This document shows positions 4,539 to 61,632 of a DNA stretch of 64,000 bases, in pieces. The stretch is from Erythrobacteraceae bacterium. Lineage in GTDB: Bacteria > Pseudomonadota > Alphaproteobacteria > Sphingomonadales > Sphingomonadaceae. The stretch covers positions 70-64,069 of the forward strand of contig JAIYAM010000026.1 in NCBI GenBank assembly GCA_027489065.1, read 5' to 3'. A program made the translations under genes and the position numbers. The notes beneath the pieces were generated by a model. The model was not told the DNA's origin and did not search any database. It was given only the letters and a program-made list of their open reading frames with translations. Each line of letters begins with the position of its first letter. Position 1 is the stretch's first letter.

Positions 4539-4550
4539 GGATGTAGATTA

Positions 4551-4565
4551 GAACATTCAATGAAC
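4551..4565. promoter_or_regulatory. Alphaproteobacterial LexA (SOS) box, GAAC-N7-GAAC
   Basis: GAACattcaatGAAC (minus strand TGTTC-N6-TGTTC), 12 nt before the ATG at 4538 and just downstream of the predicted -10. Confidence 0.7.
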
Positions 4566-4567
4566 AA

Positions 4568-4596
4568 ATCATAGCAGAATCATTTCTGCATGTCGG
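4568..4596 (-). promoter_or_regulatory. Putative sigma70 promoter of the Argonaute operon
   Basis: Minus strand CCGACA-N17-TATGAT with an extended -10 (TGcTATGAT). The spacer contains the inverted repeat GCAGAA-N4-TTCTGC. Confidence 0.5.
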
Positions 4597-4674
4597 CTAC
4601 TATCGCTTGGAGTGGTCAAAACCGCTGACCCAGGTGCCACTATCTCAGGGCGCGGCTGAGGGTTTGCTAGGCGC

Positions 4675-4723
4675 TAACATGACACTCGCCACATGTTAAA
4701 AAATTGGCGATTGTTTTAACATG
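4675..4723. repeat. Three alternating TAACATG boxes forming two inverted repeats
   Basis: TAACATG 4675-4681, CATGTTA 4692-4698, TAACATG 4717-4723. The second pair extends to a 10-bp inverted repeat (CATGTTAAAA-N12-TTTTAACATG). Confidence 0.7.
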
Positions 4724-4858
4724 ACGGCAGCCGCCCCAAGGCGGGATGCGGAACGCTTCCACTTGCGATTTGCGTCGAGGCCAAATTCAAGCAACCCTCT
4801 GTGAGCACGGCTTGCCTACCGTTGCACGCAGAATTGACGTTGATTTAACGTATTATTT

Positions 4859-7138
4859 TCAACTGCCCCTGAGTGATCCGAACATCTCTGAGATGCTTCG
4901 ATCACCATACCGCTCCATACGCGACCGCTCTTTCCATTCATCCTGCATGTGATCGGCGTACCGATCTTCGTCCTCTTCGAACTCTGCGTTTGCCTCCTCG
5001 ACACGCTGGATCATTGAGTTGACGTCGACGCCGAGCTCACTGCGGAAAAATTCTAGGTCCTCGATAAGACCAGAAAACTGCTCCCGTGATCGGCATTCTC
5101 TAAGTTCATCAGAAAAGTACCGCCGCCGATACGTGTCGAAGCTTTCTATGGCGATCGTTGCCTCATGCCCCCCCTCGCATATTTCAACGACGCACAGAAG
5201 CTCCCGCAGTTCGTCCGATCGGCAGCCAGTCCGCGCCTCTTCCAAGACTGCGTCAAGTACTGCCTTTCGCATCTGACTAATGCCGTCAGCGGGCAGCGAA
5301 ACCGCGGCGTCTAGCGCACGGATGAGCTCAACCGCATCATTAATCTCTGGCCGCACCGCGTCCCATTCCTCGATCAGCCGCGCATAAGCCGGTGTGATCA
5401 GCGCAACGATTTCAGACGTACCGAGCCGCTGGGACATCTCGACGATGATCGCGAGACGTTGTTCAAATGTCGGACCGTAGTAAGCGGTGCCGCCACCCTC
5501 CATGGTGATCCGACGACGTTGGCGTGCCGACCGGGCAATCGATGGCGCGATCCGCTGTGAATCGCGTTTCAGCGCGGCCAAGATTTTCCCGCCCTGCTCG
5601 GCTTTTGCTAAGCTCCAAATTTGCTCGATCTGCTCAAAGCGTGCCGCTCCCTCGATCATGTCGACGGCGTTGTCCGGCGCGCCGCGCGCGACGGCATTGA
5701 GCAGATCGAGCACGGAAGGATCGATAACCTCGAACCCCTCCTGACCCCAGGGCTTGATGAAGCTATTCACCACTTCGCGGATGCCAGCTCTGAGATCGTC
5801 GGGCCGTGTCGAGAAGTTGTAACGCGCGGCGCGATGCGCGTGGAGCGGCCCGAAGGCGTCTTCCAGCACGCGCCCACCACATTTACCGCCGAGAGTGCGC
5901 ATGGCGAGCAGCACCGAGCGGCCCGCGTCGGAGATTTCCTGCTCATAGGCGTGGCGCCAAATTTCGGATGGATCGCACAGGAGATTATCGACGAAGCCGC
6001 GATAGCTGTTGACCGGGACCTGCTTCAGTCGGCGGTAGGATGACAGCCACTCGATTAGGCGCGGATTGAACTTCTTATGCTTGACGATCCGCATGTAGAA
6101 TTCACCGCGCAATAGCTCGTCGCGATAAACGTCGGGCAGGTCGCTGAAGTAAAGGTGGTTGTAGAGGATGCGGGCACGCTGCATCGTCGTGTAGCTCGGC
6201 ATGTTCAACATGACACGCAGATCATCCAGCCCGGCATGGCGAAGTCGTTCGGAGCGGCCAAGCGCTTGGGCGAAGACATGCTCGCGGGTGGTCAGCACAA
6301 GTCGCGCGTCGGGCGTCGCCCTGACCATCGCAATAAAGTTGAGCAGCGCGCGGTCGTTGGAGCCGTGAACGCGGTCCCCGGCGAAAGTCGCACCCATGAA
6401 GTCATCAAAATAGAAAATCTGCCGTAAGCCAGGCTGGAATAGCTTTTCGCCCTCCTCGACGTCGCGCTGGATTAGGACGGCCTGATACCCCTGCTCGAGG
6501 TGCGCGTAGAGCAGCAGATCTGCGAGCGTCGTCTTGCCGACGCCCGGCGGTCCTGCAATGATAACGACCCGTTGATCCGCAAGCATCTGCAAAGCTTTAG
6601 GATAGACATCACTCGCTACATACCGGCGCGCCTGCTCAAAGACTTGGCGCGCCTTGAACTCGCTGCGGGTCAGCGCCGCGTTGTGTATGACCCGGTCAAG
6701 GACGCCTCGGCTTGCCAGCCAAAGCTTATAGTGGCGGCCCTCTACATCGGAATGCTGGCCGATCAGGTTATTGAGGTCTTCCGCTCCGAGGATATCCTGA
6801 GGTTGCAGATACTCTTTGCCGATGATCCCGGCGATTGCGTCCTTATTTGTCGGAGACAAAGGAACCGAGGTAACAAGGATGTACCGCGAGGGAGCCAGAT
6901 TGCGAACCTTTACCGCCTCTAGCTCTAAATCGCGCATCAGGCCCTTGAGACCAGTTCGAAGGTAATGCTTTACCTGTATGATCGTCTTTGATGGCCCAAC
7001 AGCATGACGGAGATCTATGCCGCCGTCTTGGCCTGACTTGAAACTTTCGATGTGGACGCCCCAATGCGCCTGCAGCAAGTCGCGAGTAAGAACCTCCAAA
7101 TCGTCCGGAGATAGTTGGTGAAAGTCATACTCGGGCAT
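4859..7138 (-). CDS. Mrr-like restriction endonuclease domain fused to a STAND-class (nSTAND3-like) NTPase
   Basis: N-terminal LEVLTRDLL...GQDGGIDL...IIQVKHY (Mrr_cat pattern), Walker A GPPGVGKTT, Walker B YFDDFMG, sensor LVLTTRE, helical C-terminus; 759 aa. Confidence 0.75.
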   Translation of the reverse strand: MPEYDFHQLSPDDLEVLTRDLLQAHWGVHIESFKSGQDGGIDLRHAVGPSKTIIQVKHYLRTGLKGLMRDLELEAVKVRNLAPSRYILVTSVPLSPTNKDAIAGIIGKEYLQPQDILGAEDLNNLIGQHSDVEGRHYKLWLASRGVLDRVIHNAALTRSEFKARQVFEQARRYVASDVYPKALQMLADQRVVIIAGPPGVGKTTLADLLLYAHLEQGYQAVLIQRDVEEGEKLFQPGLRQIFYFDDFMGATFAGDRVHGSNDRALLNFIAMVRATPDARLVLTTREHVFAQALGRSERLRHAGLDDLRVMLNMPSYTTMQRARILYNHLYFSDLPDVYRDELLRGEFYMRIVKHKKFNPRLIEWLSSYRRLKQVPVNSYRGFVDNLLCDPSEIWRHAYEQEISDAGRSVLLAMRTLGGKCGGRVLEDAFGPLHAHRAARYNFSTRPDDLRAGIREVVNSFIKPWGQEGFEVIDPSVLDLLNAVARGAPDNAVDMIEGAARFEQIEQIWSLAKAEQGGKILAALKRDSQRIAPSIARSARQRRRITMEGGGTAYYGPTFEQRLAIIVEMSQRLGTSEIVALITPAYARLIEEWDAVRPEINDAVELIRALDAAVSLPADGISQMRKAVLDAVLEEARTGCRSDELRELLCVVEICEGGHEATIAIESFDTYRRRYFSDELRECRSREQFSGLIEDLEFFRSELGVDVNSMIQRVEEANAEFEEDEDRYADHMQDEWKERSRMERYGDRSISEMFGSLRGS

Positions 7139-32206: not shown

Positions 32207-32581
32207 TCATCTTTTTCGTCCTCGCTCGCAAACAACCTTTGCCCCTTCACTAGTGACGAGGACCAGATTGGTGTTCCGAAAATGTGCACTGAGGTTAGCG
32301 CTGCGGTACTGAAAGCCCTGCGCAGGCGCATTCAGGACAAGCGGCTCGCCTTCGTAAGATTTGCGGACTTCCATGGTGAGACCTTCGTTCTTGAAGTCCA
32401 CAAACCGGCTTCGCCCATCAGTACATTGGTATGGGTGTCGACCCGATGGGGCGGACCCGTCCTGGATCTGCGACGCGTGGATATCTCGCTCCGATGTCGG
32501 CATTTGCTCCGGATCGCCCGAGCACGCTGAAAAGCCCGCCGCTATGGCAACGATAGAAATCAAAGGCATGACTTTCCGCAT
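32207..32581 (-). CDS. Hypothetical lipoprotein
   Basis: Lipobox-like FSAC after a hydrophobic stretch; two further Cys; directly downstream of czcA. Confidence 0.55.
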   Translation of the reverse strand: MRKVMPLISIVAIAAGFSACSGDPEQMPTSERDIHASQIQDGSAPSGRHPYQCTDGRSRFVDFKNEGLTMEVRKSYEGEPLVLNAPAQGFQYRSANLSAHFRNTNLVLVTSEGAKVVCERGRKR

Positions 32582-61119: not shown

Positions 61120-61632
61120 ATGGTTCGATATGGAGCATGCAAAATTGCGGGAGTATTGGCGGGCGTGATCATGCTGATACAAAGCCCAGTATTGGCGCAC
61201 CCCAGTACTACCGCGAAGGGGAGGGACGCTGAAGAAGGGGCCACAGTGGCTACGGCCTTGGATGGTCCCGTTGAAGCGGTAGCGAACTTTCATGATGCGC
61301 TAGCGAAGGGCGATACTGCCGCCGCACTTTCGCTTCTGGCCGAAGACGTGCTCATTTTCGAATCCGGTGGGACGGAGAACAGCCGAGCAGAATATGAAAG
61401 TCATCATCTCAAATCGGATGCCGCTTTCAGCGCCGCCGTTCCGCGCATGCTCATCAGCAGAACGCATGGTGAACAGGGCGATACAGCCTGGGTGATGAGC
61501 GTCGAGAATGTCGAGGGAACGTACCGCGATCGGCAGATCAAGAGTCGGTCTGTCGAAACGATGCTGCTTCGGCGCGTAAACGGAAGCTGGCAGATATTTC
61601 ATATCCATTGGTCGTCTTCGGACCAGCGTTGA
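61120..61632 (+). CDS. Secreted NTF2/SnoaL-like (DUF4440-type) protein
   Basis: Signal peptide; FHDALAKGD, FESGG, YESHHL, W.I.HIHWS; start at 61120 or 61102. Confidence 0.75.
   Translation: MVRYGACKIAGVLAGVIMLIQSPVLAHPSTTAKGRDAEEGATVATALDGPVEAVANFHDALAKGDTAAALSLLAEDVLIFESGGTENSRAEYESHHLKSDAAFSAAVPRMLISRTHGEQGDTAWVMSVENVEGTYRDRQIKSRSVETMLLRRVNGSWQIFHIHWSSSDQR

Follow-up and report, generated by a model that had tools for sequence, protein, structure and literature searches.

A predicted LexA operator conserved in the promoter of an alphaproteobacterial SPARDA operon

The SPARDA operon and its surroundings

The window, a stretch of 64,000 nucleotides from the draft genome of an Erythrobacteraceae bacterium (3.38 Mb, 66.8% G+C), carries on its minus strand a two-gene operon encoding a short prokaryotic Argonaute (pAgo) and its effector partner (Table 1). 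The ATG of the first gene, P0001 (4538–4536), is the first start codon past an in-frame TAA. Its N-terminal domain belongs to the DUF4365 family (Pfam, 4.9e-25) and the whole protein matches the PADLOC profile Aga_REase-PNTD1-PNTD2 (9.5e-175) and, over its full length, the solved DREN-APAZ chain PDB 9jsb_D (8e-206). Residues D41, Q60, and K62 of P0001 are invariant among 21 homologs. The second gene, P0002, matches PADLOC pAgo_I (3.9e-173) and the Ago chain PDB 9jsb_A, again over its full length (1.8e-283), and its GTG start overlaps the stop codon of P0001 by 4 nt (GTGA). The locus thus combines the features by which SPARDA is recognised, a partner with an N-terminal DUF4365/DREN and a C-terminal APAZ domain and a MID-PIWI-only pAgo in the same operon. 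Judged by these matches it is a bona fide SPARDA of the Novosphingopyxis baekryungensis type (NbaSPARDA), with which it shares two-gene architecture and family. Homology to XauSPARDA of Xanthobacter autotrophicus (bioRxiv 10.1101/2025.04.08.647717; PDB 9qbl, 9qbq), likewise an alphaproteobacterial system, is more distant, with values of 6.7e-116 and 3.5e-177 for P0001 and P0002 against its structures.

Table 1. Features of the SPARDA locus, in coordinates of the window
Feature	Position	Strand	Basis
SPARDA gene P0001: DREN(DUF4365)-APAZ effector, 444 aa	3204..4538	(-)	Pfam, PADLOC, PDB matches
SPARDA gene P0002: short pAgo (MID-PIWI), 486 aa	1747..3207	(-)	PADLOC, PDB matches
ACATCC, 6 nt between -10 and ATG	4544-4539	(-)	sequence
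Conserved -10 hexamer TAATCT (TAnnnT), abutting the predicted operator	4545..4550	(-)	ortholog profile
Predicted LexA operator, alphaproteobacterial type: TGTTC-ATTGAA-TGTTC	4551..4566	(-)	GTTC-N7-GTTC at 4565-4551
TATGAT, the -10 of the earlier note (TG at 4576-4575)	4568..4573	(-)	occupies the -35 of the conserved promoter, with 17 nt before TAATCT
Extended -10 TGcTATGAT	4576-4568	(-)	consensus scan
CCGACA, -35 of the alternative promoter, 17-nt spacer	4591..4596	(-)	consensus scan; specific to this locus
Direct repeat TAACATGAC	4675-4683 and 4717-4725		
Further inverted repeat of 10 bp	4682-4691 and 4705-4714		
Perfect 10-bp inverted repeat CATGTTAAAA / TTTTAACATG	4692-4701 and 4714-4723		
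P0003, Mrr-nSTAND3 protein	4859-7138		

The immediate upstream neighbour of the operon is P0003, and P0004 lies downstream. Neither is regarded as part of the SPARDA unit, as no homologs of P0003 or P0004 were found when these were sought beside 80 orthologous operons; hence the conserved unit consists of the two genes and a promoter of ~45 nt. The cassette encodes no regulator gene. Since the DREN-APAZ gene is absent from two same-genus genomes in the sampled set, and SPARDA homologs occur in 23 plasmid records, 15 of these conjugative, the cassette is considered both accessory and mobile. Interleaved repeats built around CATGTTA / TAACATG are also present at 4675-4725, in the stretch that separates the Mrr-STAND gene from the SPARDA promoter. 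A terminator-like hairpin at 4589-4574 was set aside because it is weak and such sites are rarer here than in shuffled controls (2 found vs. 3.6 expected).

The minus strand upstream of the operon reads ccgaca tgcagaaatgattctgc TATGAT t TGTTC attgaa TGTTC TAATCT acatcc ATG. An earlier note on this DNA placed a TGTTC-N6-TGTTC repeat between an extended -10, TGcTATGAT, and the start codon, and all of the named elements are present at the places it gave. The repeat ends 12 nt upstream of the P0001 ATG (4538).

The box and the SOS regulon of the host

GTTCN7GTTC is the published SOS box of Caulobacter (da Rocha 2008, tabulated in PMC9578287). The boxes of recA, uvrA, lexA, and imuA described for Caulobacter, Rhodobacter, and Rhizobium have this repeat and spacing (da Rocha 2008, cited in PMC9578287). 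The host genome contains 65 exact GTTC-N7-GTTC sites, among which the regulon sites are those where a T precedes both half-sites and the spacer is rich in A/T. Boxes of this kind lie directly upstream of uvrA, lexA, uvrD/pcrA, radA, ada, and nrdA, as well as a ligase-associated pdeM, two repair-type radical-SAM genes, and an MBL hydrolase gene. The host lexA gives an equivalog match of 171.8 bits and has its own box upstream, its product is 95–97% identical to LexA of Porphyrobacter/Erythrobacter, and RecA is present. On sequence grounds this motif set is a classical alphaproteobacterial SOS regulon, which bears out the reading of GTTC-N7-GTTC as a LexA site in this organism.

The bare pattern says little within the window, where 2 matches occur against 1.75 expected, which is chance level. 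A host-specific matrix and comparison of orthologs were therefore used instead. The matrix covers 21 positions and was built from 10 host sites upstream of repair genes, with the candidate excluded; the recA promoter is not among them, as recA is cut by a contig end in the assembly. On this matrix the SPARDA box scores 24.1 bits and ranks tenth in the entire 3.4 Mb genome, and the leave-one-out scores of the true host sites range from 7.6 to 28.3 bits. As the promoter is A+T-rich (39% G+C over 4539-4620), the exact tail probability was computed at a range of base compositions. The value for 40% G+C is ~2e-7 per position, or ~6e-5 per 150-nt promoter with both strands counted. The only other exact GTTC-N7-GTTC in the window (61460-61474) has a poor matrix score, and the next best matrix match (~32268-32292) has one mismatch and lies within ORFs, in keeping with the earlier note's remark that the other defence genes of the window have no such box.

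Several further strong sites of the host were observed. Two tandem boxes occur at G000 C51:136942-136991, between an 88-aa ORF of no known family and rpsB. The second of them scores 27.7 bits, and this is an unusual site for a strong LexA box. Additional high-scoring boxes (17–27 bits, 10-site matrix) are present at C58:16668, C9:16990, C43:11394, C1:18149, C6:6437, and C7:171, some of them beside ORFs that match no Pfam or NCBIfam family. Judging by position, the 261-aa ORF behind the C9:16990 box could be imuA. The ORFs behind other strong boxes (L002, L015, L016, L012) have no Pfam or NCBIfam match, and that behind another (L007) encodes only a glyoxalase-fold protein.

Conservation of the box and architecture of the promoter

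Orthologous operons were collected with a query alignment of 21 homologs, each species being represented by a single genome. The scan returned 80 loci, 79 of which have an upstream region and form the basis of the counts given here. All named records belong to Alphaproteobacteria, with 58–91% protein identity to P0001, and they range over Sphingomonadales, Hyphomicrobiales, Rhodobacterales, Caulobacterales, Acetobacteraceae, Thalassospira, Sneathiella, and Micavibrio. Searches of 400 genomes sampled from the phylum and of the plasmid collection likewise returned SPARDA from Alphaproteobacteria only.

By the earlier note's own criterion, its proposal would be refuted if orthologous promoters lacked the box, and the outcome was the opposite. 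An exact GTTC-N7-GTTC in sense orientation is kept within 60 nt upstream of the start in 60 of the 79 operons, against 0.23 expected from how often the box occurs elsewhere in these loci (1.09 million strand-nucleotides). The distance from the end of the box to the start codon is 12 nt in 45 loci, 11 nt in five, and 13 nt in eight. With redundant promoters (above 70% mutual identity) removed, the exact box is retained in 57 of 74 non-redundant promoters and a box with one mismatch in 6 more. Both the sequence and the spacing are specific. When the 12 permutations of GTTC were each searched for as N7 direct repeats, GTTC itself was found in 60 loci and the others in 0–1; when the spacer was varied from N3 to N12, N7 again gave 60 loci and the other spacings 0–2.

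Aligned on the box, the promoters carry 1.7–2.0 bits at both GTTC half-sites and 1.0–1.6 bits at the A-T-T just ahead of the second one. The rest of the spacer and the sequence further upstream have ~0 bits, which indicates that the promoters have diverged to saturation outside the conserved positions. The spacer of the present locus differs from that of its closest relatives while the half-sites are the same, indicating continuing selection on the box. Conservation is not universal, as 19 of the 79 orthologs do not have an exact box. In four of the loci (L086, L088, L101, L102) the box has decayed and the promoter TTGGCA-17-TATCAT-6-ATG is retained, hence LexA control would be dispensable in some lineages. 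The locus of N. baekryungensis DSM 16222 itself (L036, 67% identity) has ATTC-N7-GTTC and a weak -10, and so differs by one mismatch from the exact box found here.

The conserved positions continue downstream of the box and outline a promoter. Directly after the box, T is present in 97% and A in 94% of orthologs (1.6–1.8 bits), with a further T four bases on in 87% (1.25 bits). The resulting TAnnnT begins 12 nt upstream of the start in 51 of the 79 orthologs and 11 or 13 nt upstream in 13 more, 64 in total. The six bases between TAnnnT and ATG are not conserved. The start codon is ATG in 75 of 79 orthologs, and a Shine-Dalgarno-like tetramer precedes it in only one; none is present before the P0001 ATG. 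This arrangement of TAnnnT, 6 nt, and an ATG without a Shine-Dalgarno sequence most likely specifies a leaderless mRNA, with transcription predicted to begin at the start codon's A or next to it. The box-less lineages support this reading independently of the box, since they keep the same promoter. The predicted operator then fills the spacer between -35 and -10. The -35 itself is poorly defined, with only its first T conserved (89%), and it is weak in this locus (TATGAT).

A different anatomy was favoured by the earlier note, which took TGcTATGAT as the -10. With CCGACA as the -35, transcription would start near 4561, the leader would be 22 nt long, and the box would lie over +1, spanning roughly -5 to +11. 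CCGACA-N17-TGcTATGAT is indeed the best sigma-70-type match in the region (9/12 plus the extended -10 TG), and the weakness of the conserved -35 at this locus also speaks in its favour. However, no conservation is seen at the place of CCGACA in the orthologs, TATGAT is conserved only in its first T, the conserved -10 is TAATCT downstream of the box, and a 22-nt leader would have no Shine-Dalgarno sequence. TGcTATGAT is thus present as described, but as the active promoter of the operon CCGACA-N17-TGcTATGAT seems unlikely, given that the leaderless arrangement recurs across orthologs and outlives the box. The two promoters could coexist, and the alternative one may be active as well. The choice concerns anatomy only; the box sits in the core promoter under both models, and LexA bound to it would block either one.

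Two conserved features upstream of the box were also noted. Counted from the first G of the box, position -8 is a T in 89% of orthologs (4573 (-) in this locus), as expected of a -35 at its first base. Positions -15 to -13, some 7 nt farther from the box, hold a conserved AAT that is often AATC (4578-4580 (-)); it may represent an UP-like element or belong to another binding site. The CcrM motif GANTC was rejected as a source of the conserved AATC, as many orthologs have TAATC or CAATC.

Proposed SOS control and other short-pAgo families

The best explanation of these observations is that the direct repeat is a functional LexA operator conferring SOS-dependent expression on the SPARDA operon. 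We place the probability of this reading, which is drawn from comparative sequence evidence, at roughly 0.85. The principal competing explanation is that the box is a selected element bound by a factor other than LexA, or one needed for promoter function. Conservation demonstrates selection and not the identity of the binder, and part of it is due to the promoter since the TA right after the box serves the -10; furthermore, the conserved AAT and T upstream of the box are not explained by LexA. Nonetheless, the half-site sequence, orientation, and N7 spacing are identical to those of the host SOS sites, and the flank preferences agree too, with T ahead of each GTTC and A/T ahead of the second one. 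Promoter spacers are not normally constrained in sequence. The cassette brings no regulator and its neighbours are not conserved, while the element spans many orders that share only class-wide factors. Another binder, or a purely promoter-related role, is therefore judged improbable. The chance-level frequency of the bare pattern, the A+T-rich region, and the horizontal mobility of the cassette might suggest that the box arose by chance or was inherited as a relic, and that it regulates nothing in this genome. This is less probable still in view of the full-matrix probability at local composition, the genome-wide rank, the half-sites kept beside a changed spacer, and the intact host LexA regulon.

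LexA is a repressor that is removed upon DNA damage. For the SPARDA operon we infer LexA binding, repression, and induction along the following lines. In undamaged cells, a LexA dimer on the promoter spacer, abutting the -10, would block RNA polymerase and so keep a potentially suicidal nuclease complex scarce. RecA filaments formed on single-stranded DNA would trigger self-cleavage of LexA and derepress the operon; DNA damage, incoming conjugative DNA, phage replication, and prophage induction are all possible sources of such DNA. The leaderless bicistronic mRNA would then yield DREN-APAZ and pAgo, coupled through the GTGA overlap. With derepression, more SPARDA complexes would become available to load RNA guides, and a guided complex that finds complementary DNA would start collateral DNA degradation. 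As SPARDA needs a single-stranded target and single-stranded DNA is also what activates RecA, one signal may both arm the system and supply its target. Counting against this scheme are a preprint reporting that the expression of defence systems in E. coli tends to correlate negatively with that of recA, the orthologs and more distant short-pAgo operons that have no exact box, and the weak -35 of the conserved promoter.

Such control would address a gap in the description of SPARDA. NbaSPARDA has been expressed from pBAD in E. coli, and guide-dependent collateral nuclease activity and protection against plasmids or phages have been shown for it (bioRxiv 10.1101/2023.06.08.544223; PMC12205087; PMC12774872). 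In these reports the system activates spontaneously and kills cells upon expression, and double-stranded targets cannot be used. Their authors regard activation in native hosts as unresolved and spontaneous firing as possible. Neither of two SPARDA preprints refers to SOS, to DNA damage, or to a native promoter. The accessible literature describes artificial induction in E. coli of a system that kills or arrests its own cell. A conserved LexA operator would be a concrete answer to how SPARDA stays silent and when it is armed, and, if true, would explain how a suicidal nuclease is tolerated in native hosts. Argonaute immunity would then be tied to conjugative entry, phage replication, or prophage induction.

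The predicted SPARDA operator has the flank preferences of the host's own SOS sites and, like known alphaproteobacterial SOS boxes, overlaps the core promoter. Classical SOS boxes serve repair and mutagenesis genes, whereas here the box precedes an abortive-type immune system on a mobile cassette. Moreover, unlike classical SOS boxes, this one is embedded in a portable, probably leaderless promoter. This ~45-nt, putatively LexA-gated promoter may represent a compact natural part usable across many orders, and the alphaproteobacterial SOS regulon would gain an immune effector.

Damage-responsive control of costly functions has precedents. CapH/CapP are damage-responsive regulators of defence, and tisB and the colicins are LexA-controlled toxins. 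The DNA-damage-responsive WYL-domain regulators CapW for CBASS (PMC9122588) and BrxR for BREX (PMC9122589) likewise couple costly or suicidal immunity to a DNA-damage signal. However, the CapW and BrxR systems carry a dedicated regulator gene, whereas the SPARDA cassette carries only an operator and appears to borrow the SOS repressor of its host. It would thus be a mobile defence cassette using a global stress repressor of the host instead of its own regulator.

The earlier note had stated that SOS control of short pAgos was not known to have been described, and a full-text literature search agrees with this. It found no publication linking LexA or SOS control to short pAgos and no paper containing both SPARDA and LexA. 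Searches on LexA, Argonaute, and SOS returned only the physiology of long pAgos, and those on DUF4365 and SOS only unrelated work. SPARDA and the alphaproteobacterial SOS box are each known; their conserved combination appears to be undescribed.

Boxes also occur in front of other short-pAgo operons. In a class sample of 400 genomes, 11 others have a class-I short pAgo. One of these belongs to the same SPARDA clade and has the box in place. Five encode a 937-aa SIR2-APAZ partner, and two of these five operons have an exact box 50–51 nt before the start (L143 in G679, L144 in G703), one has GTAC-N7-GTTC, and two have no box. Among metagenome relatives of this SIR2-APAZ family, two more distinct promoters carry exact boxes (the L146 group and L148), and L145 does not. 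Overall, the exact boxes of this family lie 43–51 nt before the start (L143, L144, L146-L150, L152). A plasmid search with the SIR2-APAZ partner gave one weak match. Four further operons, two of TIR-APAZ type and two whose SIR2-type partner is a different one, showed no box in the 900 nt retrieved per operon, which comprise the beginning of the partner gene together with a few hundred nt of upstream sequence.

A further group is the Rhizobium-type DREN-APAZ clade, which has ~31% identity to P0001. Exact boxes in three of its loci (L111, L153, L156) share the common core GTTCCTCCTATGTTC and have differing flanks, L154 has a box in the opposite orientation, and L155 has none. The boxes of this clade end 36–78 nt before the start. 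No box is present in a Rhodoplanes-type DREN-APAZ relative or in distant plasmid DREN-APAZ operons of 27–51% identity (Sulfitobacter, Methylosinus, Haematobacter, Bradyrhizobium elkanii).

Exact boxes therefore occur in at least three short-pAgo families, the NbaSPARDA-like DREN-APAZ, the Rhizobium-type DREN-APAZ, and the 937-aa SIR2-APAZ systems, between which promoter sequences, distances, and box orientations are unrelated. With a background of ~0.014 exact boxes per 150-nt promoter this recurrence is unlikely to be due to chance, although the samples are small and were not chosen from a tree. On balance we lean slightly towards gating by the SOS repressor being a recurrent design of alphaproteobacterial short-Argonaute immunity, one that probably evolved more than once.

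One of the SIR2-APAZ/pAgo operons (L139; G541:C18, ~69.2–69.8 kb) adjoins the 3' end of an apparent tRNA gene (GGTTCGAATCC...CCA), which suggests integration at a tRNA site.
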